A stretch of 59,493 nt of DNA from Alphaproteobacteria bacterium (lineage in GTDB: Bacteria; Pseudomonadota; Alphaproteobacteria; Micropepsales; Micropepsaceae). This document shows positions 13,733 to 47,002 of this stretch, piece after piece. The stretch covers positions 1 to 59,493 of the forward strand of contig DAIDUA010000034.1 in assembly GCA_027456965.1 (NCBI GenBank), read 5' to 3'. The position numbers and the translations under genes are program-made. How positions within the stretch are numbered: the first letter of the stretch is position 1; each line of letters opens with the position of its first letter. Below the pieces are notes generated by a model. The model was given only the letters and a program-made list of their open reading frames with translations, was not told the origin of the DNA and did no database searches.

Positions 13733-14836
13733 CTAACGACCCGCGCCCGCCGCCTCATTCCAAGGCCGCGAACGCGCAACCGATATCCCGCGCATATCAT
13801 TCGGCCATTTGCCGGACACGGCGCAGTAGAAATGATAGAGATCGCCGCGGTGGGAGATCAAGGACGGCTTATGCGCATAGTCCTCGTCGATCGAGCCCGG
13901 CGGGCCGACATCGACCATGATTTCCGGCACTTTCGTGAAATGATAAGGATCGTCCCCCAGAGCCAAGAGATCACGCGCCCTGCCCTTGGAGGATAGGCCG
14001 TAATAATAGAGCGCCCACAATTTTCCGTAGCGCACCACAGCCGGGTCGCTCACGAACCGCGCATCCCACGAGCCTTCCGGTCCATTGCGCAATATCGGGT
14101 TCCCGGGATAGCGCGTCCAGGTCATCAGGTCCGTCGAGGTGGCCAGCCCAATCTGTTCGTGCCAATCCCGGGCGGCATCGTTCTTGGCATTATAGAAGAG
14201 ATAATAAGTGTCGCCGTCTTTGAGGAGGTATGGCTTGTACAAGCCGCCGCGTTCCCATGCGGCCCCATCCTCAGGCGTAAGGATCGGGTCCGTGCGCTTC
14301 CAGTGATGGAAGTCGTCACTCCATGCCAGACCAATGACCGCCGGCCCCTGCTCGTAGCCTTCATTCGGATAGGCATGCCAGGCGCCCAGATATCGCCCGC
14401 CCACTTTCGTCAACGGCGCAGACGATTGCAGATCGTTGTCGCGCAAGATGCACATCAGCGCGATGTTGTAGCGTGTGATCACCGAGCTCGGATCGCGGGC
14501 CATGATCAACCCGACGCGGCGCCAATTGACCAGGTCGTCGGACTCCGCCAGACCGGTCTGATAGCCGATGCCGTCAAATCCGACATAGGTCATATAAAAA
14601 CGGCCATCGGCCGAAAAGACGAACGGGCAATCGACGGAATGCCAGTCGAAGCTGTTCGGCACGTCCGATCGCTGGAGCACGAGCTTGTTGTATTTATAAG
14701 GCGTGCGGAACGGCGCCAGATCTTCCGGCAACGCCGCCTCGGCCGCCGCGCCGCGGGCGGGCGCAAAGGCATTCGCTGCGAATGCCGCGCCCGCCGCCAA
14801 AATGCCACGCCGTGTCGCGAACAAACCTTCGGGCAT
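13733..14836 (-). CDS. Tat-exported five-bladed beta-propeller glycoside hydrolase, GH137-like (beta-L-arabinofuranosidase)
   Basis: Tat motif TRRGILAAG. TPYKY, VDCP.VF, YMTY, GY.T.LA.SDDL, W.RYPGNP, AHK, YHFYCAV match my recollection of the GH137 domain of B. thetaiotaomicron BT0996; no alignment run. Confidence 0.68.
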   Translation of the reverse strand: MPEGLFATRRGILAAGAAFAANAFAPARGAAAEAALPEDLAPFRTPYKYNKLVLQRSDVPNSFDWHSVDCPFVFSADGRFYMTYVGFDGIGYQTGLAESDDLVNWRRVGLIMARDPSSVITRYNIALMCILRDNDLQSSAPLTKVGGRYLGAWHAYPNEGYEQGPAVIGLAWSDDFHHWKRTDPILTPEDGAAWERGGLYKPYLLKDGDTYYLFYNAKNDAARDWHEQIGLATSTDLMTWTRYPGNPILRNGPEGSWDARFVSDPAVVRYGKLWALYYYGLSSKGRARDLLALGDDPYHFTKVPEIMVDVGPPGSIDEDYAHKPSLISHRGDLYHFYCAVSGKWPNDMRGISVARSRPWNEAAGAGR

Positions 14837-14930
14837 TGTTCTTCCTGCCAAAGCGCGCCCAAGAAAAATCCCGGCGACTCGCAGGATAAGCGAGCCGCCG
14901 AGCAAGGGAGAGGGACGCTAGAACTGCCAG

Positions 14931-17546
14931 CTACATCTTGTACCGCACGCCCACGATGATCTGGCGACCATCCTTCCAGTAGTTCGCGGGGGAATAAGTA
15001 TAGCTGAAGTAGGTATGCTGCACCGTGTCGAGCAGGTTTACGCCCTGCAGGTACACAGAGAACTGATCGTCGACGTCGTAGTTGACCGAGCCATCCAGCC
15101 AACCGTAAGGCGCCTGCCGCTCAGGGATGTTGCCTCCTCCGAGACCGGTGTAGAGCGCCTGGAGGAAGTTGCTGCGCCAAGTGTAGGCCAAGCGCACAGA
15201 GACCGGCTTCAGGTCGTACATGCCTATGATCGTGAAGCTGTGGCGCGAGAGGTTAGGCAAGGTCGTCGTCGCCGTCAGCTTGCTGCCGATATAATAAGGC
15301 TGGGTGCTGTCCACATAGGTGTAGTTGGCTTGCAGCCCCAAGCCTTTCCAAATGCCCGGCAGGAAGTCGTAGAACTGCGAATAGCCGAGCTCGAAGCCCT
15401 TGATGGTGCCGCCGGTCGTGCTCGCCAGCTGTTCGCTGATCGTATAGACCGTGCCGTTGAAGGTCTCCTGAGAGGTCGTGCTGTAAGGGAAGTTGTGCAC
15501 CGACTTGATGAATCCATCGATGAACACCGCACCGCCCTTAGCGAAGTAATCTTCGAGCGATATGTCATAGTTGGACGCATACATTGCCGGCAGGTTGATG
15601 TTGCCCTTATACCCGCTGAGGCTACCCGAAATAAGGACTGTGTCCGGGTTCATCGCGCTGAAGTCCGGCCGCGTCATCGTCCTGGACGCCGCGAAGCGAA
15701 GCTGCAGCTGATCATTGAAGTGGAACCGCAGGTTCATGCTCGGCAGGACGTCGGTATGGTCCGTATGATACGTGATCGGTGTTTGGGTCGAGCCGCTGCT
15801 CAACGTCCCCGTCGCCGAGCGATTGGTATTAACAACCCGCAGGCCGAAATTGCCGTCCAAGCTGCCCAGGTCCATCTTCGCCTCGGCATAGCCGTCCGTC
15901 AGACGTTCGGATATGCCGTACCGGTTCGTCAGCGCGAACTGAGGCGTCTGGGGGGCATTGAAGAGCACGCCTTCGTCGGCAAAATTGGCGCGCAGGATGT
16001 CGGGCTTGTATACCCAGAAATTCGTCGTCTGAACGATCGTGCCCGCGAAGTTACCCGTATCGATCAACTGGAAGTAATTCGGATAAGCCGAGGGGGTCTG
16101 GTTGGGCGCCGTCACGCTGTAGCCGCCGGTCTGGTTGTAGACCGCGTCGTGATCGGAGTAACGGAAACCGAAGTCGAACTCGTCGAACGGCCCCACCTTG
16201 TGCACCCACTGAGCGTCCATTTTCGCGGCCGTGTTCTGCGCCGAGTAGCGTTGTTGCGTGTAGGAAATGCTCCCGGAATTGTAGTTGCTCAAATTCGTCA
16301 GATCCGGCCCGGTGAACGTGACCGCCGGCACGGGGCCGGTAAGGTCATAGTTCATGGTTTCGCCACCCACTTCCATCAACCCGTAAGCGACGTTCAGCAG
16401 ATAGCTAGAGTGTTGCCAGTTCACGCTGCCGGTGACGTTCAAATCACTGGTCGGATGCCACTTGGTGCCGACCGTGTAATCCTGATTGACCTCCGTGCTG
16501 TCGCGCGCGCCCATGACCGAGGTGAAGCCGTAATAGGCAAACGGCCCTATCGGACCGAAAGACCCCTTCGCCATGTAGTTTGTGCCAGGGAAGAGCGTAT
16601 AGGTTCCAGGAACCACAAGGGTGTCGGCACCGAAACCGGCCGTGTAAGTTGGCTGATTCTGGTAGGTTGCCAAACGGGTGTAATTGGCCTCAGCGTAGAA
16701 CTCAAGTCGGTCGCTCGGCCGCCATTGAAACGCGGCGTTGAGGCCCTCGCGCGGACGACTGGCACGGAAATCGCTCGTATAAACGCCGTTCGGCGTTACG
16801 ATCGTCTGGCCAGGGATGGCAAGTGTGTTGTTAGAAGGGCTACCGGCGGAGGCGTAGTCTTCCCGCACCGCGCGGTCCTGATAGGAAATGTCGATCAGAG
16901 CGCCCATCTCGCCAATGCTGGTGCTCCAACGATCACTTAGCAGCACCGAACCGGAAGGACGGGCCGCGCCGACCAGATCGCCGTAGTTCATTGATGCGTT
17001 GGCAACCACCTCCGCTCCACTGAAGTCGAACGGCTTGAGCGTGCGGATATTGATCAGACCGCCCAGTCCGCCCTCGTCGAGATTGGCCGCCGACGATTTA
17101 TAGACGTCGATGCCAGCGACCATTTCGGCGGGCATGTCCTCGACGTCATAGGTGCGAAAGCCGGATGCCGTGAGCACTTCGTGGCCGTTGACCGTCGTCT
17201 CCACCTGCTGCAAGCCGCGGATGGCGATGCCCGAGCCTTGGTTCTGGCCAGCGCCGCCCTCGCCGAAGTCGCGCTTGATCTGTATGCCGCTGATGCGCTG
17301 AAGGGCATCGGCAACGGTCGTGTCAGGCAGTTTGCCGATGTCCTCGGCGACGATCGAATCCACGATCTCGCCCGAATTCTCCTTAATCGCCAGTGCGGAC
17401 TCTAAGCTCGCGCGCACGCCCGTCACGACCACGGTTTCCACCGCGTTCGAGCCCGTTTGACCGGCAGTCTGAGCGGCCGCCGGCATCGCTGTCGCCATCC
17501 CCGCGACCATGGCTACGCCAGTAAGCAATTGGAACTTCAACTTCAT
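14931..17546 (-). CDS. TonB-dependent receptor (carbohydrate-associated type)
   Basis: Signal peptide, TonB box ETVVVTG, plug AEDIGKLPD..ADALQRISG, SRTMTRPDF, GFELGY, NYTY, C-terminal IVGVRYKM; GGAGGT RBS before ATG 17546. Confidence 0.95.
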   Translation of the reverse strand: MKLKFQLLTGVAMVAGMATAMPAAAQTAGQTGSNAVETVVVTGVRASLESALAIKENSGEIVDSIVAEDIGKLPDTTVADALQRISGIQIKRDFGEGGAGQNQGSGIAIRGLQQVETTVNGHEVLTASGFRTYDVEDMPAEMVAGIDVYKSSAANLDEGGLGGLINIRTLKPFDFSGAEVVANASMNYGDLVGAARPSGSVLLSDRWSTSIGEMGALIDISYQDRAVREDYASAGSPSNNTLAIPGQTIVTPNGVYTSDFRASRPREGLNAAFQWRPSDRLEFYAEANYTRLATYQNQPTYTAGFGADTLVVPGTYTLFPGTNYMAKGSFGPIGPFAYYGFTSVMGARDSTEVNQDYTVGTKWHPTSDLNVTGSVNWQHSSYLLNVAYGLMEVGGETMNYDLTGPVPAVTFTGPDLTNLSNYNSGSISYTQQRYSAQNTAAKMDAQWVHKVGPFDEFDFGFRYSDHDAVYNQTGGYSVTAPNQTPSAYPNYFQLIDTGNFAGTIVQTTNFWVYKPDILRANFADEGVLFNAPQTPQFALTNRYGISERLTDGYAEAKMDLGSLDGNFGLRVVNTNRSATGTLSSGSTQTPITYHTDHTDVLPSMNLRFHFNDQLQLRFAASRTMTRPDFSAMNPDTVLISGSLSGYKGNINLPAMYASNYDISLEDYFAKGGAVFIDGFIKSVHNFPYSTTSQETFNGTVYTISEQLASTTGGTIKGFELGYSQFYDFLPGIWKGLGLQANYTYVDSTQPYYIGSKLTATTTLPNLSRHSFTIIGMYDLKPVSVRLAYTWRSNFLQALYTGLGGGNIPERQAPYGWLDGSVNYDVDDQFSVYLQGVNLLDTVQHTYFSYTYSPANYWKDGRQIIVGVRYKM

Positions 17547-17620: not shown

Positions 17621-17753
17621 TGGCGTGAACAATCACCTCTGACAAGCAAAAGATTTCACAATTTGGGAAAGCGTCTTATGTTTTTCGATCGTTGTGGCTT
17701 TTGGGTCGCGCCTCCGAACTGGCCCACAATTACGTCCAGATAGGAAGAAAGCA

Positions 17754-20600
17754 ATGCGTTCCAGCCGACGTACAATATTGAATCTTATGAGTTTTGCAGG
17801 TCTCTCAAATGCATGGGCGCGCCCCCTTTGGGCGGCATCGCAAAAGGTAATTCCCACAGCGGCCTGCGCCATCGAGCCAGCTTTCCCGCGCGTCGAATGG
17901 CTTCAATCGCCTAACGGACTCGACACACAACTGCCGCGCTTTACCTGGACCTTGAGGCCGCGGACAGGGGAGGCGCGAAATCTAAGCCAAAGCGCCTATC
18001 GGCTGTTGGTAGCGTCGTCGCCTGCACTTTTGCGGCAAGGCCACGGCGATATCTGGGACAGCGGCATATGCGCCGGCGGGAAACTGCTTGCCAGCCCGGC
18101 GGCCACGCTATCGCTTGGCTCCCACAAAACATATTGGTGGACGGTCAGAGTCTGGGACGAGAAGAATAGGCCATCGCGCTGGGCCGCGCCCGAACGATTC
18201 GGGACCGGGCTCATGGATGCGAGCGATTGGCGCGCTCGATGGATTGCAGCAAAACCCGATCAGCCTGTGCCCGCCGGTCCGCCGAGCGCCATGGCCGTGC
18301 ATGCCGCCGTGGAACCAGAGCCGATGCCGTTGTTCCGCCGGCAGTTCCGGCTCGCCAAGCAGATTCGGTTCGCGGTCGCCAGCATCTCCGGACTGGGGCA
18401 ATACGAGTTGCTCGTCAACGCGCAGACCGTCGGGCACGGCGTTCTCAATCCCGGTTGGACCGACTATCGCAAGACCGTGCTGTACAACACTTTTGACGTT
18501 ACGCGCCTCTTGCGCCGGGGAACCAACACCCTTGGCGTGATGCTAGGAAATGGCCTGTACAACGTTCAAAGATACCCTGGGCGCTACACGAAATTCGTCG
18601 GAACCTTCGGACAGCCAAAACTAATATTGCAGCTTAAAATCATTTTTATAGATGGCAGCGAAAAAACGATCATAAGTGATCAATCCTGGACGACGCGGCC
18701 CGGACCAATTCTGCTGTCTTCCGCCTATGGCGGCGAGGATTACGACGCGCGGAGCGAACCCCCAGCATGGGACACGAATGATCGCAATGAAGACTGGTTG
18801 CCTGCATGTGAGGTGCAGGGGCCCGGAGGAGCGCTGCGCGCGCAGGGCATACCACCGGTCACCGTGGCGCGTGTCTTTAAACCAATCGCCATCACCCAGC
18901 CGAAGCCAGGCGTCTTCGTCTACGACCTCGGCCGAAATTTCGCCGGCTGGCCGACAATCGTTGTCCGCGGGCCAGCCGGAAAGGCTGTGCGACTTCTTCC
19001 CGCCGAATTGCTGGACGAGAACGGCTTGGTGACGCAGCAGAGCGCCAACGCCCGTCCAGGCATGGACGTGGAATTCAATTACACGCTGAAAGGTCACGGC
19101 GACGAAGCCTGGCATCCGCGCTTCAGCTATTACGGATTCCGCTACGTACAGGTGGAGGGCGCCGCGCCCAAGAAACACGCCAAACCAGGTATGCCGGTCC
19201 TGCTGTCTTTGCATGGCGCCTTCCTTCACACCGCCCTGCCCCAGGTCGGCACGTTCGACAGCAGCGACAATCTGCTGACGCGCATCCATCGTCTCATCAA
19301 GAACGCCTTGCTGAACAATACGTTCAGTGTACTGACAGATTGCCCGCAGCGCGAAAAGCTTGGCTGGCTCGAACAAACCTATCTGAATGCCGACACCGTC
19401 TTCGACAACGAGGATGCCGTCACGATTTACGAGAAGATGCTGAACGACATGAAGGACAGCCAGCTGGCGGACGGGCTCGTTCCAGAGATCGCACCGGAAT
19501 ATGTGGCGTTCGATACGCCTTCACTTGCAGCATTTCGCGATTCACCGGAATGGGGTTCGGCGGTCGTCTTGAGCCCGTGGGCAGCCTATCGCCGTTACGG
19601 CAACAGCAGGATTCTACACGACGGCTATTCCGCCATGCGGCGTTACGCGGACTACCTTCAGCAGAAGGCTCATGGCGGTCTGCTCGATTACGGATTGGGC
19701 GACTGGTACGACATCGGACCGCAGCCTCCTGGCGAAGCGCAACTCACCAGCAAGATGTTGACCGCGACAGCCACCTATTACGGAATGCTGTGCACACTGG
19801 CGCGAATAGCCGCCCTGCTCGACAAGCCGGACGATGCCGACGACTATCGGCGGCGTGCCGCATCCGTCAAAGACGCATTCAACGCCAAGCTGTTCGACCC
19901 GCGGACCGGTCATTACGACCGTAACAGCCAAACCGCGAACGCCATGCCGTTGGTTCTGGGGTTGGTGCCTGATGGCCAGCGGCAGGCCGTTCTCAAAAAT
20001 CTCGTTGCCGACATCCGGGCGCGGCAGAACCATGTCTCCGCCGGGGATATCGGGTTTCACTATGTTGTGCAGGCGCTGATGGAAGGCGGCCGCGGCGACG
20101 TCCTTTTCGACATGCTGTCTCGCACAGACTCGCCGAGCTATGCCTATCAGCTTGCAAAAGGCGCGACGGCGCTTACCGAAGCCTGGGACGCCAATCCAAC
20201 GAAATCGCAGGACCATTTCATGCTCGGTCACGCCGAGACTTGGTTTTATGGCGGGCTGGGCGGCGTCCGCATCGACATGAGCGCACCGGAAGACCGCCGC
20301 ATCCTGATCGCGCCACAGATCATCGCAGGCGTCGCCGCGACGTCCGTGCGCTATCGCTCGGTTCTCGGCGAGGTCGCGTGCGCATGGCGAAAACGCGATG
20401 GCTTTCTGAAATTGCACGTCGAAGTCCCGGCGGGCGCCTGTGGGCGCGTATTGTTGGCCGGGCTGCGGCCGGAGAAGGTACGCGAAGGTAGCAAAGAGCT
20501 GTCACGCGCCTACGGCGTTCTGAAGATCGAGACGGACGATGCGGGCACGATGATCACAATCGGCTCGGGAGGCTATGATTTCACCGCCCCCCTGAACTAA
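17754..20600 (+). CDS. GH78 alpha-L-rhamnosidase (Tat signal)
   Basis: SRRTIL Tat motif; PGWTDY, YDLGRNFAG, FSYYGFRYVQ, TDCPQREKLGWLE, GLGDWYD, TALTEAW. Confidence 0.9.
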   Translation: MRSSRRTILNLMSFAGLSNAWARPLWAASQKVIPTAACAIEPAFPRVEWLQSPNGLDTQLPRFTWTLRPRTGEARNLSQSAYRLLVASSPALLRQGHGDIWDSGICAGGKLLASPAATLSLGSHKTYWWTVRVWDEKNRPSRWAAPERFGTGLMDASDWRARWIAAKPDQPVPAGPPSAMAVHAAVEPEPMPLFRRQFRLAKQIRFAVASISGLGQYELLVNAQTVGHGVLNPGWTDYRKTVLYNTFDVTRLLRRGTNTLGVMLGNGLYNVQRYPGRYTKFVGTFGQPKLILQLKIIFIDGSEKTIISDQSWTTRPGPILLSSAYGGEDYDARSEPPAWDTNDRNEDWLPACEVQGPGGALRAQGIPPVTVARVFKPIAITQPKPGVFVYDLGRNFAGWPTIVVRGPAGKAVRLLPAELLDENGLVTQQSANARPGMDVEFNYTLKGHGDEAWHPRFSYYGFRYVQVEGAAPKKHAKPGMPVLLSLHGAFLHTALPQVGTFDSSDNLLTRIHRLIKNALLNNTFSVLTDCPQREKLGWLEQTYLNADTVFDNEDAVTIYEKMLNDMKDSQLADGLVPEIAPEYVAFDTPSLAAFRDSPEWGSAVVLSPWAAYRRYGNSRILHDGYSAMRRYADYLQQKAHGGLLDYGLGDWYDIGPQPPGEAQLTSKMLTATATYYGMLCTLARIAALLDKPDDADDYRRRAASVKDAFNAKLFDPRTGHYDRNSQTANAMPLVLGLVPDGQRQAVLKNLVADIRARQNHVSAGDIGFHYVVQALMEGGRGDVLFDMLSRTDSPSYAYQLAKGATALTEAWDANPTKSQDHFMLGHAETWFYGGLGGVRIDMSAPEDRRILIAPQIIAGVAATSVRYRSVLGEVACAWRKRDGFLKLHVEVPAGACGRVLLAGLRPEKVREGSKELSRAYGVLKIETDDAGTMITIGSGGYDFTAPLN

Positions 20601-32008: not shown

Positions 32009-35000
32009 ATGCTGAAGATCGATCGTCGAGACTTTATGATAGCAGCAGGTTTGATCGCGGCGGCCCCCGGGCCGGCACGCGCGCGGGCAAACGGGTTGCA
32101 GGCTACGGCGCTTAAGACGGAGTTCATCGACCGACCGCTTGGGCTCGACACGCTTAAGCCGCGATTCTCGTGGCAACTGCAGTCCGGACGGCGAGGCGCG
32201 AAGCAATCGGCCTATCGCATCACGGCGGCATCGTCGGAGACAAAGCTGAAAGCGGGCGTGGCGGATATCTGGGACAGCGGACGCGTCAAATCGGACCGCT
32301 GTTTCGAGGTCCCGTATGAAGGCCGACCGCTGCAGTCGGCCGAACGCGCTTGGTGGCGGGTTCAAATCTGGGACGAGACAGGCCGCCGGTCCGCCCATAG
32401 CGACGCCAGTTGGTTTGAAATGGGCCTATTAGCTCCATCCGATTGGACGGGAGACTGGCTGATTGCGCAGGAGCCCGAAGAAGCCGCAGACCGTGCGGCC
32501 GGGCTGCATTGGATATGGGACGGCAAGCCACTTGATCCACGGCCGCGGAAATTCCGCTTCCGTTTTTCTCTACCGGCGGACCCCGCCGACGCCAAGCTTC
32601 TTCTCTCGGCCAAGGACAATCTGGTCGGCGTTTGGACAAACGGTCGACCGGCGCAGTTGCCCGGCCAAGTGTTCTGGGGAACGATGCAGACGATTCCGGT
32701 TTCTCTCGTCGGCGGCGACAACGTCATTTGCGTCGAGGCGACGGCGCTGACGGACGGCTTCCTACCGCCCGACGGCGGCGCCGTGGCAGCGCTCCTGCGC
32801 GTAACGTCAAGGGACGGCCATGTAACGCGGTTTACGTCAGGTCCGGACTGGCGCGTTTCGAATCTAGATGCCTCGGACTGGACCACGACGTCGTTCGACG
32901 ACAGCGCCTGGCAGCATTCGCAGTCGTCGCATGCGCACGCATGGTGCGAACCCTGGCCGGCAGCCGACGCGATGCTCTTTCGCCGTTCTTTCTCAGTCGC
33001 CAAGCCGATAGCACGCGCACGTCTGTATGCGACAGCGCTGGGGGCCTACGAAGCCTATCTGAATGGCCGCCGCGTCGGAGACGCACGTCTTGCGCCGGAG
33101 ATTGCGGTTGCGAGCGATCACGTATTTTACCAAACCTACGACGTCACGGATTTTCTGCAAAGCAGCGAGAATGTGATCGGACTTCTGATCGGCGACGGCT
33201 GGTATGCCAGCGCTTTCGCGTGGCGCAACGAGCGCTTTTCGCTCGGCAACGGCCCGCGACGTTTCCTGACGCGGCTTGTGCTCGATTACCAGGACGGCAG
33301 CCAAGACATCGTCACCACCGACGGGAATTGGCGCACGACGCCATCCGCCATACGGACGTCGGAAATCTACAATGGCGAGACCTACGACGCGCGGTTGGAG
33401 CAGTCGACTTGGAACAGAGCAGATTTTGATGACAGTCATTGGCGCCCAGTAGACACCGGTGAAAAGCCGCTCGTCCGCCTTATACCTCAGGTGAGTCCGC
33501 CGATCCGCGAAATGCAGGCACTTTCCGCCAAGAGCGTGACCGAACCGCGCCCCGGTACGTTCGTCCTCGACTTCGGGCAGAACTTCGCAGGCTGGTGCCG
33601 CTTGCGCGCGAAGGGCACCACCGGCACCGCCATTACTCTGCGTCACGCGGAGATCCTCAAGCCCTCCGGCGAGATCGACACAAGCAATCTGCGCGGCGCC
33701 AAGGCAACGGACACGTATGTGCTTCGCGGCGATCCGGCTGGCGAGGCTTACGAACCGCACTTCACCTATCACGGCTTTCGCTATGTGGAAGTCACAGGTT
33801 ACCCGGGCCGACCCGACGCAAAGTCCCTCGATGGCGTCGTCGTCCACACCGACGCCCCTGCGACCGGCACGTTCACCGTCGAAAATGCTCTTGTCCAGCA
33901 TATCTGGCACAACGCACTGTGGAGCCAACGTTCGAATTTCTTCGGCGTGCCGACTGACTGTCCACAGCGCGACGAACGCATGGGTTGGATGGGTGACATT
34001 CAGGTTTTCCTAGATGCCGCTGCTTTCAATATGGACGTCGATGCCTTCATCCGACGCTTCCTGGCCGAAGTGCGCGCCGGACAGACGCCCGACGGCGCTT
34101 TCCCGGTTGTCACGCCGCAGCCGCGTTCTTTCCCGCCGATGCTGACTGCAGGATGGAGCGAAGCCGGCGTTATCCTGCCGTGGACGCTCTACCGCCGTTA
34201 CGGCGATATGCGGGTCATCGAGGACAATTGGGCCGCGATGTCCGCCTGGATCGCTTTTGTCTCCGACGCAAACCCCGACTTTCTGTGGCGCAACAAGCGC
34301 GGCCTGGACCTCGGCGACTGGCTGTCGGTGGATGCCAAGCAGCCGTGGGATGAAACCACACCTCGGATGCTCGTGGCGACTGCCTATTGGGCCTACGTCG
34401 CCAGCCTTATGGCCGAGATGGCCAAGGCAATCGGACTGGTCGGCGACGCCACTCGTTACACAGAGATGCGGGGAAAGATCGGTCAGGCCTTCGCTTCGAC
34501 TTTCGTGCGGCCGGATGGCACGATCGGCAACGGCAGCCAGACAAGTTACGTGCTGGCACTGCGTTTCGGGCTAGTACCCGAACATTTGCGCGCCGCGGCC
34601 GGCGACCATCTCGCGGCCGGCATCCGGGCGCGTGGCACGAAGCTTTCAACCGGATTCTTGGGAACGCCCTACCTACTGGACGCGCTCAGCGACACCGGGC
34701 ACGCCGATGTTGCCGTGTCGCTGCTGCTGCAGACGGAGTATCCGTCCTGGGGTTACATGATACGCAAGGGCGCGACCACGATGTGGGAGCGCTGGAACGG
34801 CGACGTCGGCGACGTCTCAATGAATTCTTACAATCACTACGCGTTTGGCGCGGTAGTGGGCTTTCTGTACCGACGGCTAGCCGGGATCAGTCCGGCGGCA
34901 CCGGGCTTCAGGCGGATTGACGTAAATCCGATCTTCGACACACGCGTGGGCCGTGTGCACGCGGAGTATCAATCCTGCCTCGGGCGCATCACGACCGACG

Positions 35001-35206
35001 TGAGCGGCGACGCTGCAGGCCTTTCCCGCCTTCGCCTCTCCGTTCCTGCCAATGCCATCGCACGAATCCAGCTGCCGGCACGCAGCACCGTTTGGCATGA
35101 AAGCGGCCGCCTCCTGGATCGCCGCCCCGATCTGAAGGTCCTCGACAGGAACACGTCGTTGTTGACCGTCGAGGTAGGTTCCGGAGACTACGATTTCGGT
35201 GCCTGA
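32009..35206 (+). CDS. GH78 alpha-L-rhamnosidase (Tat signal)
   Basis: DRRDFM Tat motif; ARLYATALG.Y, DFGQNFAG, FTYHGFRYVE, PTDCPQRDERMGWMGD, GDWL, GATTMWERW, MNS.NHYAFG. Confidence 0.93.
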   Translation: MLKIDRRDFMIAAGLIAAAPGPARARANGLQATALKTEFIDRPLGLDTLKPRFSWQLQSGRRGAKQSAYRITAASSETKLKAGVADIWDSGRVKSDRCFEVPYEGRPLQSAERAWWRVQIWDETGRRSAHSDASWFEMGLLAPSDWTGDWLIAQEPEEAADRAAGLHWIWDGKPLDPRPRKFRFRFSLPADPADAKLLLSAKDNLVGVWTNGRPAQLPGQVFWGTMQTIPVSLVGGDNVICVEATALTDGFLPPDGGAVAALLRVTSRDGHVTRFTSGPDWRVSNLDASDWTTTSFDDSAWQHSQSSHAHAWCEPWPAADAMLFRRSFSVAKPIARARLYATALGAYEAYLNGRRVGDARLAPEIAVASDHVFYQTYDVTDFLQSSENVIGLLIGDGWYASAFAWRNERFSLGNGPRRFLTRLVLDYQDGSQDIVTTDGNWRTTPSAIRTSEIYNGETYDARLEQSTWNRADFDDSHWRPVDTGEKPLVRLIPQVSPPIREMQALSAKSVTEPRPGTFVLDFGQNFAGWCRLRAKGTTGTAITLRHAEILKPSGEIDTSNLRGAKATDTYVLRGDPAGEAYEPHFTYHGFRYVEVTGYPGRPDAKSLDGVVVHTDAPATGTFTVENALVQHIWHNALWSQRSNFFGVPTDCPQRDERMGWMGDIQVFLDAAAFNMDVDAFIRRFLAEVRAGQTPDGAFPVVTPQPRSFPPMLTAGWSEAGVILPWTLYRRYGDMRVIEDNWAAMSAWIAFVSDANPDFLWRNKRGLDLGDWLSVDAKQPWDETTPRMLVATAYWAYVASLMAEMAKAIGLVGDATRYTEMRGKIGQAFASTFVRPDGTIGNGSQTSYVLALRFGLVPEHLRAAAGDHLAAGIRARGTKLSTGFLGTPYLLDALSDTGHADVAVSLLLQTEYPSWGYMIRKGATTMWERWNGDVGDVSMNSYNHYAFGAVVGFLYRRLAGISPAAPGFRRIDVNPIFDTRVGRVHAEYQSCLGRITTDVSGDAAGLSRLRLSVPANAIARIQLPARSTVWHESGRLLDRRPDLKVLDRNTSLLTVEVGSGDYDFGA

Positions 35207-35364: not shown

Positions 35365-36036
35365 ATGGCAAAAAAGCTCGCGCTGCTGCACACCTCACCA
35401 ATGCTCACGCCATTGTTCGGCACACTTTGTGCGCAATGGATGCCGGAGACGCGCATCTTTCACATGGTCGACGAAAGTCTGATCAAGAACACGATCGAAA
35501 CCGGCCATCTGCAGAATACCACGATCCGGCGGCTGATCTGGATGATAGGGTCCGGCTTCGAAGCTGGCGCTGATGCGGTGCTAGTCACCTGTTCGTCGAT
35601 CGGGCCAGGCGTTGACGTCGCCCGGAAGATATTCGATCGCCCGGTCATTCGAGTCGACGAGGCCATGGCGGCGAAGGCTGTGGGCCTCGGAACGCGTATC
35701 GGCGTTGTTGCGACGTTGCGGACGACGCTGGACCCGACCATCGCTCTAGTCCATCGCAAAGCCGCGGAAGCTGGCAGGCAAATCGAGATTACCGACTGCC
35801 TCTGCGACGGCGCGTTCGAAGCCGTCATCGCCGGCGACACGGCGACGCACGACCGGATCGTCGCCGATGCCCTCACGAACAAAATGCGCGGCGTCGACGT
35901 CATCGTACTTGCCCAGGCATCCATGGCACGTCTCGCCGGGGCGCTTGCTCCGGGCGCCGTGTCCGCGCCGATCCTCTCGAGCCCGGAACTCGGCGTAAAG
36001 CACGTTCGCGACGTTCTGCACGGGGGCGTCGCTTGA
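35365..36036 (+). CDS. Asp/Glu/hydantoin racemase-superfamily protein, function unknown
   Basis: LALLHTS, HMVDESL, ADAVLVTCSSIG, RVDE.MA, GVVATL.TTL.PT, DVIVLAQASMA; second catalytic Cys position is Gln. Confidence 0.8.
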   Translation: MAKKLALLHTSPMLTPLFGTLCAQWMPETRIFHMVDESLIKNTIETGHLQNTTIRRLIWMIGSGFEAGADAVLVTCSSIGPGVDVARKIFDRPVIRVDEAMAAKAVGLGTRIGVVATLRTTLDPTIALVHRKAAEAGRQIEITDCLCDGAFEAVIAGDTATHDRIVADALTNKMRGVDVIVLAQASMARLAGALAPGAVSAPILSSPELGVKHVRDVLHGGVA

Positions 36037-37301
36037 AGAAGCGCTACATCGTCGTCGGCCTGCTCAGCGTTGTCTCCATCATCACCTTTCTCGACCGCAT
36101 GGCCATCGCGGTCGCCGGACCGCAGATCCAGCAGGACTTACATATTAGCCCTGACAAGTGGGGCTGGGTGCTCAGCGCTTACGTCATCGCCTACGGCATC
36201 TTCGAAATCCCTTCCGGCGCCATGGGCGACAAGAACGGCCATCGGCGGGAGTTGACGCGCATCGCCGTCTGGTGGTCAGCATTCACGGCACTGACCGGAT
36301 GGTGCCAGAACTTCCTTCAACTGGCTGCGACGCGATTTCTGTTAGGCATCGGCGCGGCTGGCGCTTATCCAAATTCCGCCGGCGTGTTGTGGCGCTGGTT
36401 ACCCGCACACGAACGCGCGCGCGGACAAGGCGCCATCTGGGCCGCCAGCCGGCTCGGCGGTGCGCTGGCGCCTTTGCTGCTGGTGCCACTGGAGGAATAT
36501 CTCGGCTGGCGTGCGGTATTCTGGGCATTGGCCGGCGTCGGATTGGTCTGGGCCATCTTCTGGCACCGCTGGTATCACGATCAACCTGCGCAGCAGCCCG
36601 GCATTACCCCCGAAGAAGTGGGCGCGATCGGTAAGCAAGGTGACGACGGGCTGCATCGCTCGCCGCCCTGGAAGAAACTGCTGCGGCTTCGGCAGCTTTG
36701 GCTCATCACGGTCGCCTACGGATTCTACGCCTGGGGCAGTTGGTTCTATTTCAACTGGTTTCCAACCTGGATGCTCCATGCCGGCCATTTCACGATGGCG
36801 CAAATGGGCGTTTATGCCTCATTCCCCTTCCTGCTCGGCATCGGGAGCAACATTCTGGGCGGCATGCTGTGCGACGCCCTCGCCAAACGGATCGGCGTCC
36901 AATATGCCTACCGCATCATCACATCCACCTGCCTTGTCGTGGTCAGCGTGCTGCTGCTCCTGATGAGTATGTCGAGCGGCCACATCGCCATCGTCGTACT
37001 GGCAAGTGCGAGTTTCGCGGTAATGGACCTGATGTTGCCGGCGGCATGGGCGATGTGCATGAGCATCGGAGGCCAATTCGGCGGCGTCGCGACCGGCATC
37101 ATGAATACTTCAGGCCAACTCGGCGGACTATTCTGCACCCTCGCATTCGGTTACATCGTGAGCGCGACCGGAAATTACGATCTGCCGGTCCGCGTCGTGG
37201 CCTTGATGGTGTTCGTCGCTGCGCTGATATTTTCGCAGATCAATTGCACGAACGGGCTTACAACCGACGAAGAGCGGGCATCTGTTCTGCAGACGGCTTA
37301 A
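36033..37301 (+). CDS. MFS transporter, anion:cation symporter (sugar-acid, GudP-like) family
   Basis: ITFLDR..I.VA, FEIPSG..GD..G.R, RFLLG.G.AG.YP, GIMNT.GQLGG; ~12 hydrophobic segments; TTG start overlaps the upstream TGA. Confidence 0.88.
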   Translation: MKKRYIVVGLLSVVSIITFLDRMAIAVAGPQIQQDLHISPDKWGWVLSAYVIAYGIFEIPSGAMGDKNGHRRELTRIAVWWSAFTALTGWCQNFLQLAATRFLLGIGAAGAYPNSAGVLWRWLPAHERARGQGAIWAASRLGGALAPLLLVPLEEYLGWRAVFWALAGVGLVWAIFWHRWYHDQPAQQPGITPEEVGAIGKQGDDGLHRSPPWKKLLRLRQLWLITVAYGFYAWGSWFYFNWFPTWMLHAGHFTMAQMGVYASFPFLLGIGSNILGGMLCDALAKRIGVQYAYRIITSTCLVVVSVLLLLMSMSSGHIAIVVLASASFAVMDLMLPAAWAMCMSIGGQFGGVATGIMNTSGQLGGLFCTLAFGYIVSATGNYDLPVRVVALMVFVAALIFSQINCTNGLTTDEERASVLQTA

Positions 37302-38612
37302 TTATCCGGCCCCAAGAAGCACTCTTTCGAAGAAGTCCTCCGAGCCGATCTGGCCGCCCTTGAGCACAAGCTCAAGACCGTCGAGCGCTGCGTCATCCGA
37401 ATGCCCCCGGCAAAGAGGTGCGCCGGGTTGCAGGTTGCCCGCCCAAGTGAGCGCGTGAAGGCCAAGCTGCGCGACCGCGTGGCTCGATGTATCACCACCA
37501 GCAAGCAGAACCCGCCTTACGCCGCTGCGTAGGATGACGTTACGCAGCAACCCGCCGACTTTCCGGCCAAGCGCGTCACCGAATGACGGCGTTTCCGCGG
37601 CGAGCGGCCCGAGCGCACTGTAAAGCACGACCTTCCCGCTCTTTCGCAACATCGCGATCGCTGCACCGCTGTACTGTTCCATCGCCGCATCTGCCGCATG
37701 AATCAGATGTTGCGGATCGAGAACAATATTCTCGAAGCCATGTGCAGCGGCCCAGCGGATTTGGCCTGCCGTCACGGGCGAACAACTCCCGCTGACGACC
37801 AACAGGGAGTCCGCTGCTGACGGTCGAACCGACGGAGCGCTGTCCGGGATCAAGCCGTCCGCCTGCCATTGCGATATCAACGCCTGCGTCAGACCTGAAC
37901 TTCCAACCGCAAACAGATGTTTGCGCCGGGCCCCTAACGACAGCACGCGTCCGATTTCGTTCAGCATCCGTCGATCGATACCGTCGAACAATATGGCTTT
38001 CCGTCCCTCTGCGAGTTGGCCAGCAAGAACGCCCTCGGATTCGCCCGCTTGAAGGGTCTGCAAATCGATCAACCCGATGGGCATTGCCGTTTGCAACGCG
38101 AGGTGGCGGCGCAAGTCAGCTTCGTGCATGGGCGTGACAGGATGACAGCTCATCGTCGGATGGCGATCGATCCGATAGATATTCTCGCCAGCAGCCGCAA
38201 ACAGATTTCCGAAGACAACATAACGGCGAAGATGCGGCGCGCCCACGACGATCGGCACGAACTCCGGCGCGAAGACCGACAGCCCGATTTCCATCGCGCG
38301 CCCGATAGAGCCGCGCGATGGCGCGCTGTCGAAGGTGGAGCAGACCTTATAATGCGTCACCGGAGCATCGAATGATCTGAGCAGCGCAAATATCCGCGGC
38401 AAGTTCTCATCCATCCAAGCGGGTGTGCGGCTGCGGCTGTCGCCGGCAATGCCAATCACTTGGCAATCCGAGAAGCGTTGGAGATGTTCTGCCGATGGCT
38501 CGCCGAGGAACAGTACGCTGCGCAACCCTGCACCCGCAACATTCTCCAGCACATCGGTCGAGCCTGTGAAATCGTCGCCGTAAAAGGAGTAGATCAATGC
38601 GCTCTGCGGCAT
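37302..38612 (-). CDS. Four-carbon acid sugar kinase family (DUF1537), OiaK-like
   Basis: YGDDFTGSTD, HYKVCSTFDS, R.DRHPTM..HPVTPM.EADL, SGSCS.VT..Q, AGGDTS, LKGGQ.G. Confidence 0.9.
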   Translation of the reverse strand: MPQSALIYSFYGDDFTGSTDVLENVAGAGLRSVLFLGEPSAEHLQRFSDCQVIGIAGDSRSRTPAWMDENLPRIFALLRSFDAPVTHYKVCSTFDSAPSRGSIGRAMEIGLSVFAPEFVPIVVGAPHLRRYVVFGNLFAAAGENIYRIDRHPTMSCHPVTPMHEADLRRHLALQTAMPIGLIDLQTLQAGESEGVLAGQLAEGRKAILFDGIDRRMLNEIGRVLSLGARRKHLFAVGSSGLTQALISQWQADGLIPDSAPSVRPSAADSLLVVSGSCSPVTAGQIRWAAAHGFENIVLDPQHLIHAADAAMEQYSGAAIAMLRKSGKVVLYSALGPLAAETPSFGDALGRKVGGLLRNVILRSGVRRVLLAGGDTSSHAVAQLGLHALTWAGNLQPGAPLCRGHSDDAALDGLELVLKGGQIGSEDFFERVLLGAG

Positions 38613-38619
38613 GATCGCA

Positions 38620-39891
38620 TCACGCGGCAAAGCGTTCGAGCGCCGACCGCAAGTCGCCGTGGGACTTCGCGTAGTCGGCAAGAGGGATGCCAGCAACCGC
38701 GGCATCCCAGGCCTCGCGCAAGCTGCGCACCCCGGCGGCAATACCTTTTGGATGTGCCATGATGCCGCCGCCGCAAGCGAAGATCAGGTCCGTCGAACCG
38801 AGGGCGCGGAAGGTGTCGGCCGCCTGCCGTACGGTCTGACCCGACGAAAACACCGGCATGACCTCGCAACCCCGCCCGGCCGCATCGAACATCGGCGTCA
38901 GACATTCCTTCGCGGACGCTATGACGGAAGCATCGTCTTCGCAGAACTTGTTGCGCAGGCCATTGACATGCGTGTGATCTATCCCCGCCAGACGCCAGAA
39001 TTTCTGGAAGGCGACGAAGCTCATGCCGATAGCCGGCGAGCGCCCGAACATACCCCAGCCGTTGCGATGCCCATGGATCGCAAGTCGCGAATGCTTCCGC
39101 AGCACTTTGAGCGCCGGCAGGCCGATGCTGTTCATACTGATCATGATGCATGTGCCGCCTTCGCGAGCCACCAGATCGTGCCGATAGAGCATTTCATCCA
39201 CTTCGCCGGTGATATTGGCCGCGTACATCACCTTCTTGCCCGTACGCTCGGCGTGCACTCGCAGGACGCGCATGACGGCCGGTACACGCGACGCGAAGGG
39301 GCAGTGCGGCCCGTCGGCCTGCAACTCGTCATCCTTGATGAAGTCTATCCCCGCCTCTGCGAGAATGCGCACGCGTTCCGCCGTCTCTTCCGGAGAAAGC
39401 CCGACGCTTGGCTTGATGATGGTCCCCAGCAAGACACCCTTGGGAACACCGCACAAACGGCGCGTGCCGACGACGCCGAACTGCGGCCCCTGATACGCAT
39501 CGAGAAACGCCGACGGCAATTTCACGTCAAGCAATTTCAGACCCGAGAACGCCTTCAACTCCCAGAGATTGCCCGCAATGGTGGCGAGCAGATTGGGAAG
39601 AGATGGCCCCATATTGTCCAGCGACCAAGAGAACGTCACTTCTGCCGTATGTCTTTGACCGTCCCAGGCCTTCGGCAACCCGGAGCCGGGCAGCGAAGGC
39701 TCATCAGCATTGGCGAGTTCAACGATCCTTTCGACACGTGCGGCGCAACGTGAGCGTAACGCGTCCGTTTCTCCAGGGACGGAAACAAAAGTACCCGTGG
39801 ATTGTTCGCCAGCGATCGAGGCTGCGGCAAGCTCCAGAGGATAGGCCGTTTCGATCCAATACCGCGCTTCAATCCTGTTCGTCATGGTCAC
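38620..39891 (-). CDS. RuBisCO-like protein (form IV), OiaX/OiaT-like
   Basis: AGEQSTGTF, GTIIKPSVGL, carbamylation motif GIDFIKDDEL, HGHRNG, PVFSSGQ, GGGIMAHP.G; no small subunit or PRK nearby. Confidence 0.92.
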   Translation of the reverse strand: MTMTNRIEARYWIETAYPLELAAASIAGEQSTGTFVSVPGETDALRSRCAARVERIVELANADEPSLPGSGLPKAWDGQRHTAEVTFSWSLDNMGPSLPNLLATIAGNLWELKAFSGLKLLDVKLPSAFLDAYQGPQFGVVGTRRLCGVPKGVLLGTIIKPSVGLSPEETAERVRILAEAGIDFIKDDELQADGPHCPFASRVPAVMRVLRVHAERTGKKVMYAANITGEVDEMLYRHDLVAREGGTCIMISMNSIGLPALKVLRKHSRLAIHGHRNGWGMFGRSPAIGMSFVAFQKFWRLAGIDHTHVNGLRNKFCEDDASVIASAKECLTPMFDAAGRGCEVMPVFSSGQTVRQAADTFRALGSTDLIFACGGGIMAHPKGIAAGVRSLREAWDAAVAGIPLADYAKSHGDLRSALERFAA

Positions 39892-41696
39892 GTCTGCTGA
39901 AAATACGTGTCGTAATCTTCATCTTGCACTTGATAGAACGGCACAAAGACAAGGTCCCTACTCGACTCGGACTGCGTGTAGGTCTGCTGCGATCGCGACA
40001 GGCGCGACAATCCCAAGGGATTGGGCAACACCGTCATTGCCTGCTCCGACGTCTGATTGAGCGAGACATACATCACCGGTCCCTTCATTAGGGCAACCGT
40101 ATCCTTATGAAGTTCGTCGATCGGTTCCGTGCGAAAGACCTGCGGCAACCGCAGTTCGATATGGTCACCGGTCCTCCAGGTACGATGAATCGCTACAAAG
40201 CTTCCTGGCCTGGCAGCTACTTCGAACGGCCGCCCGTTCACGAGGATATTTGGTGAACCTTCGACCCATCCCGGGACTCGCAGATGGAGCGTGAACGCCA
40301 CCGCTGAACGGGTTGTCAGACGCAAGACGATCTTGTCATCCGCCGGATAATTCGTTTCTTGAACCAGCCGTACCGAGGTCCCCTGCACGTCCCATCGCAC
40401 CTCCGATGGCGTGAACATGTTTACATAAAGATTACCTGCCGAATGAAAATAGAGATTGAGAACATAATCTGCCACGCCCTGCACCAATGTTCCGGAACAA
40501 CACGGCCACTTTTGCGGATAGAATTCCTTGCGCGCATCCGCACTGTATGTGGAGTAATATGGATACCCGCCGTCACCGTCTGGGTACTTCGTACCAAGAA
40601 TGGTGTTGTAGACGACCCGTTCGAGTCCGTCGCCATAGCGCGCGTCGCCGGTGACACGCAGCAGATAACGGGCGAATTTCATGCTCGCATAACTGCCGCA
40701 GGGCGTCTCAAAATGCGCTTTGGTGTTGAACAGGCTATCGTAGAGCGCGCCTAGATGCGGGCTGACAAGCATTTCGTCGGGCCCCCAGCCGCCAGACGCG
40801 TAACGCTGCAACTCCAGAAAGCGCCATGCGTTCACGAGAGCCGCCTTGTACTTTCTGTCGCCGAGCGTCAGATATGCTTTGCCCGCCGAGCTCAGGGCCA
40901 TAACGTGACTGTAGGCATGTTTGCCCGGCAAGACGTCCTCGCCTCGCGCCAGCGGGTCGAAGTATTCCTCATCCAGAAGGTACTTCACTGCCATATCGTG
41001 GAACTGGCGATTCCCAGTTATTTCCGAAGCGATAAAGAGGTTCTCTGGAAGAATGTAAGTCTCGTCGTAAGGTGGGTCTTTTTTGCCGATACGGTCGCGG
41101 CTTACCGGCGAAATAAACGGCTTGGCGCCGTCGATGACGCGCGGCAGAAGGGTCTTGGCTTTATCGACACCGCTCAGCCGGTAGGCGTCGATGAGGCCTA
41201 TCTCATGCTTGTCTAGAATGTATGCCGGCCATACTTTTTCCGCGTTTGGCCCGGCGTACGGATTGGGATTGCGGTCAAGCGCAGCGCCGAACCCGTCCAC
41301 CAGCGCGTGGACCTTTTCGTGGCAGGCTGCGTCGCCTGTGCAGCTGCCAAGACGCGCCAGACCGGAGACGTATTGTCCCAATGAGTGCCCCGGGACAAAT
41401 CCATCTGTGTCGTACCAGCCCCCCATATCCTTGCCCGGTGCATCGAGCTCGGCATGCTGGCGATAGACTTTCAGCAGACGATTATTGTCGAGCGAAAGAT
41501 AATGCGCGTGGATTCGGTCGTAGTGACCCTTCAACGGGCCGCCGGTCAATCGCACATCGCGATAGGCGAATTCATGCATCACCTCCGTAGATGAACTCGC
41601 ATCGCCCGCAAGGCTTTGAAGAGAGAGAGCTCTGCCAAGGGCCGTCGCATAAGCGGCGTTTTTCAAAAGCAGGCGGCGCGAAAAGTCCAGCGACAT
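39888..41696 (-). CDS. GH127/GH146-like (DUF1680) cysteine glycosidase (Tat signal)
   Basis: SRRLLLK Tat motif; RLL..YR....L.APG..MGGW, GH.LGQY.S.LA, HAYSH, ETPC.SY, ER..YN.ILG, WPCC.GT; stop overlaps the RLP start. Confidence 0.85.
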   Translation of the reverse strand: MSLDFSRRLLLKNAAYATALGRALSLQSLAGDASSSTEVMHEFAYRDVRLTGGPLKGHYDRIHAHYLSLDNNRLLKVYRQHAELDAPGKDMGGWYDTDGFVPGHSLGQYVSGLARLGSCTGDAACHEKVHALVDGFGAALDRNPNPYAGPNAEKVWPAYILDKHEIGLIDAYRLSGVDKAKTLLPRVIDGAKPFISPVSRDRIGKKDPPYDETYILPENLFIASEITGNRQFHDMAVKYLLDEEYFDPLARGEDVLPGKHAYSHVMALSSAGKAYLTLGDRKYKAALVNAWRFLELQRYASGGWGPDEMLVSPHLGALYDSLFNTKAHFETPCGSYASMKFARYLLRVTGDARYGDGLERVVYNTILGTKYPDGDGGYPYYSTYSADARKEFYPQKWPCCSGTLVQGVADYVLNLYFHSAGNLYVNMFTPSEVRWDVQGTSVRLVQETNYPADDKIVLRLTTRSAVAFTLHLRVPGWVEGSPNILVNGRPFEVAARPGSFVAIHRTWRTGDHIELRLPQVFRTEPIDELHKDTVALMKGPVMYVSLNQTSEQAMTVLPNPLGLSRLSRSQQTYTQSESSRDLVFVPFYQVQDEDYDTYFQQT

Positions 41697-46989: not shown

Positions 46990-47002
46990 CAGCGAAGTGT
47001 CG

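Follow-up and report, generated by a model that had tools for sequence, protein, structure and literature searches.

Rhamnogalacturonan-II (RG-II) is the plant pectin of greatest complexity, and knowledge of its breakdown comes almost entirely from Bacteroidota. For its side chain B, the accessible parts of two reports on Bacteroides thetaiotaomicron list BT0996-N (GH137), BT1019 and BT1001 (GH78), BT0986 (GH106), BT0983 (GH2), BT0984 (GH139), BT0985 (CE20), BT1003 (GH127) and BT1012 (GH140) (bioRxiv 10.64898/2026.03.13.711244, PMC13501991). Here we describe a gene island in the 59,493-nucleotide contig DAIDUA010000034.1 (assembly GCA_027456965.1) from an alphaproteobacterium of the Micropepsaceae. 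The window analysed is this one entire contig; the genome is 2.36 Mb and 67% complete, and all negative searches of it given below refer to this incomplete assembly. The island probably serves the utilisation of RG-II side chain B, partly through enzyme families different from those of gut Bacteroides. The genes, families, motifs and conserved linkage are observed, and every substrate and reaction we infer from them.

The island shares with the RG-II polysaccharide utilisation loci of B. thetaiotaomicron a GH137, a BT0986-like GH106, GH78s, an acetylesterase, a cysteine glycosidase of clan GH-P, an outer-membrane receptor and rhamnose catabolism. It differs in having GH29 in place of GH139, GH42 in place of GH2, an SGNH esterase in place of CE20, a GH146-like enzyme in place of BT1003 and a TonB-dependent receptor without SusD, and its cluster holds no enzymes for chains A, C or D or the backbone. 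It also carries candidate pathways for sugars that B. thetaiotaomicron reportedly secretes; as far as the available text of one report goes, no 2-O-methyl-fucose pathway is known in that species or confirmed in other gut microbes (bioRxiv 10.64898/2026.03.13.711244). Pfam searches over 40 window open reading frames (ORFs) confirmed every gene named in an earlier note on this DNA, and all the named carbohydrate-active enzyme (CAZyme) genes (GH137-like, two GH78, BT0986-like GH106, GH127/146, SGNH, GH42 and GH29) are intact ORFs within 13733-41696. The note had missed two catabolic modules in or next to that span, namely a cassette with a kinase and a RuBisCO-like protein (RLP) and a block of coenzyme A (CoA) genes. 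The features of the span that carry the argument are:

13733..14836, minus strand: GH137-like five-bladed propeller with a Tat-like (twin-arginine) leader, predicted terminal beta-L-arabinofuranosidase (PDB match, homology)
14931..17546, minus strand: TonB-dependent receptor, predicted to take up oligosaccharides (TIGR01782 above cut-off)
17694..20600, plus strand: GH78 alpha-L-rhamnosidase a (Pfam, homology)
20659..22260, minus strand: GH29, predicted 2-O-methyl-alpha-L-fucosidase in which Cys161 replaces the His of the O2-binding site (PF01120, alignment)
22250..24346, minus strand: GH42 with the His of QEQYH, predicted beta-D-galactosidase, start codon uncertain (motif)
24524..28063, plus strand: GH106 alpha-L-rhamnosidase, BT0986-like (Pfam, PDB match)
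30567..31955, plus strand: predicted O-acetylesterase of the SGNH/GDSL type, with a Sec-type leader (Pfam)
32009..35206, plus strand: GH78 alpha-L-rhamnosidase b (Pfam, NCBIfam)
35365..36036, plus strand: protein of the Asp/Glu-racemase fold carrying the motifs CSS and AQASM, candidate aldose-ketose isomerase for aceric acid (Pfam, motifs)
36033..37301, plus strand: major facilitator superfamily (MFS) transporter nearest anion:cation (sugar-acid) symporters (best NCBIfam TIGR00893, below cut-off)
37302..38612, minus strand: DUF1537 four-carbon acid-sugar kinase, OiaK-like (NF042436, 461.6 bits, cut-off 700)
38620..39891, minus strand: RLP, OiaX-like (NF042437, 460.1 bits, cut-off 700; best PDB match 3nwr)
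39888..41696, minus strand: GH146-like cysteine glycosidase of a separate lineage, predicted to hydrolyse aceric acid linkages, Tat-like leader (PDB match, residues)

As read off the sequence, the leaders of the glycosidases resemble twin-arginine signals and that of the esterase a Sec signal. Chain B is probably the substrate of the cluster, since both the GH137 and the GH106 have a Bacteroides chain-B enzyme as nearest solved relative. The GH137-like protein finds its best PDB match in 5mt2, which we take to be the BT0996 N-terminal domain (E 1.2e-35, residues 58-386; next family match E 2e-8); the homology to that propeller is full-length and places it in GH137. It retains the Glu that is Gln in 5mui and is 36% identical to the GH137 of an RG-II locus in Rufibacter. 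The GH106 likewise matches 5mqm best, presumably BT0986 (E 2.6e-227; next family member 9.9e-144), and reaches only 258 bits on the BT4145 model (cut-off 1300), so that it is a Pfam GH106 closer to BT0986 than to other members. It is 40% identical to the Rufibacter RG-II GH106, and GH78 a is 41% identical to the GH78 adjoining GH137 in that locus.

The gene context in relatives is the main ground for RG-II as the substrate, and here the chain-B assignment of the earlier note was supported. A close GH137 orthologue occurs in 2 of 200 family genomes, G103 and G137, both of the same genus. The cluster is not chance, as all eight CAZymes and the TonB receptor recur together in these two genomes, again as one cluster; the CAZymes are 54-77% identical, the SGNH esterase having 64-65% orthologues, and a 42% orthologue of the receptor adjoins GH137 in both. 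The two clusters are adjoined by a DUF5060/DUF5605 apiosidase-like (GH140-like) gene and a set of fucose-isomerase-fold, split-transketolase and FGGY genes. Overlapping CAZyme sets were found in Acidobacterial genomes. The Croceibacterium plasmid NZ_CP156083.1 carries two GH42, GH29, SGNH, GH137, GH146-like, RLP, kinase, racemase, MFS and the CoA block, accompanied by GH33, GH28, pectate lyase, GH95 and a BT0996-like GH2. In addition, a Bacteroidota RG-II locus with a true BT1003 orthologue (above cut-off), GH139 and GH140 is found on the Rufibacter plasmid NZ_CP012644.1, together with the RLP-kinase-racemase trio and the CoA block. In relatives, the neighbours of the shared CAZyme set are for the most part apiosidase-like genes, genes of apiose catabolism or further RG-II genes. 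Two further observations concern these regions: the isomerase copy in the G201 cluster (L059:3278-4643) is split over several frames, with an intact copy on another contig, and the Croceibacterium RG-II plasmid region encodes a 2144-aa protein without Pfam or NCBIfam match (L114:32954-39388).

The GH29 was proposed to stand in for GH139. PF01120 matches it with 338 bits, above cut-off, and its nearest solved structures are 7snk and 7ljj (exo-alpha-L-galactosidase); the FIHWG, EW and FDW motifs are retained. It thus shares domain and motifs with the GH29A alpha-L-fucosidases. However, alignment to 7snk shows EHHDG there and EHCDG in the window protein, so that the His-His pair for fucose O4 and O2 has become His160-Cys161, the O2-binding His (His129 in TmFuc) being replaced by Cys161. 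This His is the hydrogen-bond partner of O2 in seven of seven solved GH29A enzymes tabulated in the accessible part of PMC11796335. Cys occupies the O2 site in all seven distinct cluster orthologues, and among the best 120 of 7644 GH29 homologues the site is Cys in 108 and Ser in 12. According to the available text of PMC12282258, known GH29s do not cleave methyl-fucose, and GH139, a marker of RG-II degraders, is the sole family that does; its BT0984 has the substrate and the position in the chain-B pathway that are predicted for the window GH29, with unrelated fold and mechanism. A GH139 orthologue used as query found no match in this genome, and the GH139 N-domain model found none in G103, G137, G201 and G807. 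Rufibacter, which has GH139, retains the O2-site His in its GH29. A 2-O-methyl substrate would require that such a bulky O2 ligand be lost, and we think it fairly likely that the window GH29 acts on 2-O-methyl-fucose in place of GH139, as its residue change, the absence of GH139 matches and the shared gene context suggest. Several points weigh against this assignment: the nearest solved GH29 is an alpha-L-galactosidase/fucosidase, the substrate may instead be L-galactose or carry another 2-substituent, and G697 has a weak partial match to the GH139 N-domain (PF18961, E 6e-5). A Persicobacter GH29 with His-to-Ala at the O2 site (L123:17610-19103) adjoins the CoA/MaoC block described below in a sulfatase/GH16 locus and may point to 2-O-methylated L-sugars of algal glycans.

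The GH2 galactosidase in the B. thetaiotaomicron chain-B set is BT0993. In the window, GH42 appears to take this place as a beta-galactosidase, as had been proposed: the QEQYH motif is retained, and its His is, by motif position, the residue that would bind the C6 hydroxyl. The arabinopyranosidase BlArap42B carries a His-to-Trp exchange at this site, as given in the available part of PMC8106489; no aromatic residue replaces the His in the window's single GH42. A second GH42 with Tyr at the site is present in G103, G137 and Croceibacterium, and the second copies of G201 and G697 retain His. The Tyr-type copies (for example L023:421-2571 and L114:12403-14490) are candidate alpha-L-arabinopyranosidases of a new type. 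Plausibly, GH42 covers both GH2 jobs in the relatives, and the window holds the galactosidase type only. Counting against a complete chain-B pathway, an arabinopyranosidase-type GH42 was found neither in the window nor in this genome, which leaves alpha-L-arabinopyranose (Arap) without a clear enzyme, and degradation could stall at Arap. The residue-by-residue map of the earlier note breaks down here, since the window has no arabinopyranosidase-type GH42, no short or BT1001-type GH78 and no apiosidase.

A reading of the GH127/146 gene as a BT1003-type GH127 did not hold up. Its product matches 5opj best (E 8.9e-42), compared with 2.2e-22 for 5mqo; we take these to be BT0349 and BT1003, respectively. 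On NF049879, the model of BT1003-type GH127, it scores 119 bits against a cut-off of 950, compared with 1189 for the Rufibacter control. The acid/base position is Glu308, compared with Gln in 112 of 120 BT1003-type homologues, Gln being presumably the signature of BT1003 orthologues. Together with a Zn site of E330, C333, C399 and C400, this gives the set of acid/base Glu and Zn ligands Glu, Cys and vicinal Cys-Cys that the accessible text of PMC10850190 describes for GH146. BT0349 and Bll3HypBA1 have this set in common with the window protein, which residues and PDB match mark as GH146-like within clan GH-P. Judged by its sequence, the gene is GH146-like and not a BT1003 orthologue. It represents a separate subfamily that is ~29% identical to a BT1003 orthologue, lacks its Gln, has a one-residue insertion (ETPC) and is tied to a sugar-acid catabolic cassette.

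In the tree of GH146-like proteins it falls into a separate clade, first of 12 rows (support 100/98) and later of 15. Of the 15 clade members, 12 have an OiaK-like kinase gene within ~10 kb and 10 an RLP gene, compared with none of 19 outgroup paralogues in either case; several of the latter adjoin GH43/GH51 arabinose genes. Two clade members came from a blind search of 251 Acidobacteriota-side genomes, both with the cassette in the window's gene order. A His two residues before the Zn-binding Glu, His328, is shared with BT1003-type proteins (15 of 15 clade members, 119 of 120 BT1003-type homologues), and the outgroup has Ser at this site in 16 of 19, with Tyr in the HypBA1-like proteins of the loci examined. 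No BT1003 orthologue scored above cut-off in 301 Bacillota-side genomes, and none of 20 loci there had a kinase or racemase gene within 1.5 kb. The kinase linkage and His328 make us lean slightly towards aceric acid as the substrate of the GH146-like enzyme. Less favourable to this view, the Gln of BT1003 is missing from the protein, and His328 is also present in L044 and in 2 of the 19 outgroup proteins. Within the clade, L034 has no kinase gene closer than 10 kb, L033 and L035 lie near contig ends, and L114 joined via a kinase search. The counts are not independent, as the genomes are related. A role as apiosidase was considered and rejected: natural apiosides are 1,2-trans and the known substrates of clan GH-P 1,2-cis, and relatives carry a separate GH140-like gene. 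A GH146-like paralogue elsewhere in this genome, 41% identical to the window's and with Ser at the His328 site, belongs to an arabinan-type locus (C72, L022, 612-20000) with araA/araB/araD-like genes, three SSF transporters, two GH43, a GH51 and a TonB receptor.

The GH146-like gene heads an operon, its stop overlapping the start of the RLP gene, with the kinase following, and this operon converges on the racemase-fold gene and the anion MFS gene. Both CSS and AQASM motifs are present in 112 of 120 homologues of the racemase-fold protein. In G103 and G137 the kinase is kept, and PdxA, a class I aldolase, a vicinal oxygen chelate (VOC) protein and a tripartite ATP-independent periplasmic (TRAP) transporter replace RLP, racemase and MFS; both transporter types point to an acid substrate. 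On paper, the 2-ketose of aceric acid equals 3-oxo-isoapionate plus one methyl group, a likeness that would explain OiaK- and OiaX-like enzymes without ApnO. Whether the kinase/RLP route consumes aceric acid is, from these sequence relations, evenly balanced. The racemase fold alone is not a marker, as a search of 400 Alphaproteobacteria gave six distant matches in unrelated contexts and a Rhizobium plasmid homologue (48% identical) does not adjoin glycosidases; a metagenome scan for it returned one 1.3-kb contig. The kinase and RLP trees were made with FastTree and have no firm root, the kinase tree being poorly resolved. The alternative cassette of the relatives is located at L019:1193-7030 and L020:15066-19790, also with a DeoR gene. 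Between its aldolase and GH146-like genes, G103 and G137 encode a 746-aa exported protein without Pfam or NCBIfam match and with faint likeness to GH5 (L019:7078-9315; also L020, L039, L060), which recurs in Acidobacterial clusters and is a candidate new glycoside hydrolase family.

One rival leaves the glycosidases on chain B and has the kinase and RLP consume apiose/apionate, as OiaK and OiaX, or another C4/C5 sugar acid, with aceric acid discarded. The apionate oxidoisomerase ApnO (PF16896) feeds OiaK in the apiose/apionate route. The best NCBIfam models of the two window proteins are indeed OiaK and OiaX, and searches of this genome yielded no other route for apiose. The oxidative D-apionate routes ApnO-OiaK-OiaX/OiaT, as outlined in the available part of PMC13753588, use a DUF1537 kinase and an RLP of the same broad clades as the window's. 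The kinase of a canonical Rhizobium apionate locus scores 482 of 700 on NF042436, also below the cut-off, so that the window kinase's 461.6 does not exclude OiaK function. Moreover, an ApnO-like gene follows the kinase in loci L027 and L028, as in the apionate route, which speaks against the aceric-acid reading. By contrast, canonical OiaX scores 781 bits on NF042437, compared with 460 for the window RLP, which is 45% identical to it and stays below the cut-off. PF16896 was not found in this genome or in nine of the ten genomes searched, the positive one being that of L028. G103, G137, G201, G202, G204 and the Croceibacterium plasmid have a transketolase-type apiose gene set (the plasmid without isomerase match), and the cassette is tied to the GH146-like clade rather than to apiosidase genes. 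No ApnO, ApsD or ApnL orthologue was found here, their position being taken by genes for a racemase-fold protein, an anion MFS and a glycosidase. We regard this rival as unlikely.

Downstream of the span covered by the earlier note (13733-41696) lies the CoA block (41834-53613):

41834..45985: candidate module for 2-O-methyl-fucose, with two family III CoA-transferases, one leaderless gene of the binding-protein fold and, at 45521-45985, a MaoC dehydratase (Pfam)
46027..53613, plus strand: sugar ATP-binding cassette (ABC) transporter, IclR, a second leaderless binding-protein-fold gene, a Gfo/Idh/MocA dehydrogenase and a short-chain dehydrogenase/reductase (SDR) (Pfam, NCBIfam)

The best solved match of the SDR is 8xwk (E 3.6e-88), L-2-keto-3-deoxyfuconate 4-dehydrogenase, an enzyme of the non-phosphorylative L-fucose pathway (PMC11199699). 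The CoA module occurs inside this operon in rhizobia, within the L-fuconate operons of Ensifer and Nitratireductor. In Rufibacter it follows GH139 on one strand, in Croceibacterium it runs into GH42-GH29(Cys), and in Persicobacter it adjoins the Ala-type GH29. Compared with that pathway, the window adds two CoA-transferases, MaoC and leaderless binding-protein folds; MaoC and CoA go unmentioned in the accessible text of PMC11199699. A C2 methyl ether would stand in the way of the usual fuconate dehydratase, and CoA activation followed by MaoC elimination would bypass this step, freeing methanol. No fuconate dehydratase was recognised in the window; neither was a lactonase or fumarylacetoacetate hydrolase (FAH) gene, which disfavours the route. 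A MaoC match is also missing from G103, G137 and G697 despite their Cys-type GH29, which weakens the CoA route. A CoA route for methyl-fucose is accordingly a possibility to which we give somewhat less than even weight.

The proposed pathway would run as follows. Chain-B fragments would enter via the TonB receptor, exported enzymes would trim them from the non-reducing end, and the sugars would be consumed in the cytoplasm. GH137 would remove beta-L-arabinofuranose, the two GH78s and the BT0986-like GH106 L-rhamnose, and the SGNH esterase O-acetyl groups; the Cys-type GH29 would release 2-O-methyl-L-fucose in place of GH139, GH42 beta-D-galactose in place of GH2, and the GH146-like enzyme L-aceric acid in place of BT1003-type GH127. 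Rhamnose would pass to the adjacent rha genes. The anion MFS would import aceric acid, which the racemase-fold protein may isomerise to the 2-ketose, on paper the methyl homologue of 3-oxo-isoapionate; the OiaK-like kinase would phosphorylate this ketose, and the RLP would decarboxylate or cleave it to dihydroxyacetone phosphate and acetaldehyde or to 3-phosphoglycerate and lactate. Methyl-fucose may be oxidised to 2-O-methyl-fuconate, activated with CoA and dehydrated by MaoC to an enol ether, which would lose methanol to give 2-keto-3-deoxy-L-fuconate for the SDR.

A second rival holds that the organism degrades whole RG-II, with the genes for the backbone and chains A, C and D in the unassembled third of the genome, and is not a chain-B scavenger. 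Scavenging had been suggested from the lack of GH28, PL1, GH105 and GH140. This lack stands for the window, where none of these domains occurs among the 40 ORFs scanned, and fails for the genome, which has a GH140-like gene at C177:5037-6194 (E 2.7e-30) and a GH28 at C141; a GH140-like gene also adjoins the cluster in both same-genus relatives. PL1 and GH105 were not found in this genome, nor were orthologue-level backbone or chain A, C and D enzymes, GH138, GH141, GH142 and GH143 not having been searched with their own models. The incomplete assembly favours whole-RG-II degradation, as do the GH33 and several GH28s in Croceibacterium and Acidobacterial carriers. On the other side, nothing scored above 183 bits for the BT0996-type GH2 (chain-A glucuronidase) in G103 (100% complete) and G137 (96%), compared with 959 in Croceibacterium, and neither has a GH33 match; GH28 matches number five in G103 and one, weak, in G137. 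This fits the chain-B specialisation proposed earlier and makes whole-RG-II degradation improbable. Points that sit poorly with chain-B use are that the genome's GH140-like gene adjoins GH52 and ManD, a xylose/uronate context, not RG-II genes, that the short GH78 type of Acidobacterial clusters was found neither in the window nor in this genome, and that the genome has no recognisable apiose pathway. A chain-B scavenger is a reasonable description of this lineage, though short of proof for the incomplete genome studied here. According to the available text of one report (bioRxiv 10.64898/2026.03.13.711244), primary degraders release both methyl-fucose and fragments of chain B by secretion, which would offer a scavenger its ecological niche.

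Three observations from the rest of the genome belong here. The DUF5060/apiosidase-domain protein of C177 (G000, L046, 4605-6542) lies downstream of ManD and divergent from GH52. The GH28 of C141 was rejected as an RG-II enzyme, as it passes the BT4146 rhamnogalacturonidase model (RG-I type), and a split transketolase on C148 was rejected as AptAB, being 32-40% identical to E. coli genes and lying among polysaccharide-biosynthesis genes.

According to the least probable rival, the cluster targets other glycans of rhamnose, arabinose, galactose or fucose. These could be extensins, arabinogalactan-proteins, saponins, flavonoids bearing rhamnose or apiose, or an exopolysaccharide of microbes that contains L-galactose or 2-substituted fucose. 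The rival draws on the action of GH78, GH42, GH29 and GH146 families on such glycans (PMC10850190, PMC8106489, in their accessible parts), on the occurrence of the CoA module in fucose operons of rhizobia as well as in a marine locus for sulfated glycans without RG-II genes nearby, and on the window's lack of RG-II backbone enzymes. We consider it quite unlikely in view of a GH137 and a BT0986-like GH106 nearest RG-II enzymes, relatives that hold the CAZyme set among RG-II marker genes, and separate loci in this genome of arabinan type (C72: GH146-like paralogue, araA, GH43, GH51) and for RG-I (C141).

The remaining genes of the island and its surroundings are:

4182..12312: L-rhamnose catabolism, with a flavin mononucleotide (FMN) lactate dehydrogenase-like protein, FGGY (rhamnulo)kinase, RhaD, RhaEW, RhaI and DeoR regulator (Pfam, NCBIfam)
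12324..13712, minus strand: flavin adenine dinucleotide (FAD)-linked 2-hydroxy-acid (lactate/glycolate-type) dehydrogenase, immediately downstream of GH137 (Pfam, NCBIfam; substrate predicted)
28085..28984, minus strand: IclR regulator (Pfam)
29468..30544, plus strand: RhaT-family symporter (NF010024 above cut-off)

RhaD and RhaEW exceed their NCBIfam cut-offs. The G+C content is 60% at 13.7-41.7 kb and 58% at 41.7-54.4 kb, whereas the flanking DNA has 65-66%, and the low-G+C block ends on the right at a tRNA-Lys gene (54447..54522, minus strand). This fits an acquired island; no donor is claimed. Nor is a tRNA attachment-site repeat, the only match being 14-18 bp inside a coding region near 4126. 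Between SDR and tRNA-Lys lies a 141-aa ORF without Pfam match (53900-54325). At the left end (616-3442), an amidinotransferase/dimethylarginine dimethylaminohydrolase (DDAH)-like gene, an Lrp regulator and a beta-eliminating lyase (tryptophanase-type) are not related to the finding. A second rhamnose operon (G000, C141, L025, 3-10645) has RhaD, a partial RhaEW, RhaI in two reading frames and DeoR; its genes are 65-79% identical to the window's and adjoin the BT4146-type GH28, another GH106 and a TonB receptor. C141 is a separate RG-I locus.

In summary, sequence and gene context point to a real, conserved new form of RG-II chain-B utilisation with several predicted new enzyme functions. More tentatively, and with considerable doubt, there may be a second, independently assembled chain-B machinery in Alphaproteobacteria and Acidobacteria, comprising a GH29 methyl-fucosidase that arose by loss of the O2 His, convergence of a GH146-like enzyme on aceric acid, an aceric-acid route of racemase-fold isomerase, DUF1537 kinase and RLP decarboxylase/hydrolase, and CoA/MaoC removal of the O-methyl group by elimination and hydrolysis with no demethylase. 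A literature search at abstract level, with most subscription papers outside its reach, returned no aceric-acid or methyl-fucose catabolic pathway, no GH29 methyl-fucosidase and no locus of this type. If the proposal is true, screens based on GH139 and BT1003 overlook a group of degraders from soil and water, and a new activity would be added to each of the families GH29 and GH146. The methyl-fucose and aceric-acid questions are directly testable, as the defined substrates CDRO_B5 (a chain-B pentasaccharide) and CDRO_B7 (AceA-Rha-Api) exist and named cultured strains carry the genes (L030, L114, L091/L116). Should the RLP act on a branched sugar acid, this new RuBisCO-like reaction would also bear on the diversification of that fold's chemistry.

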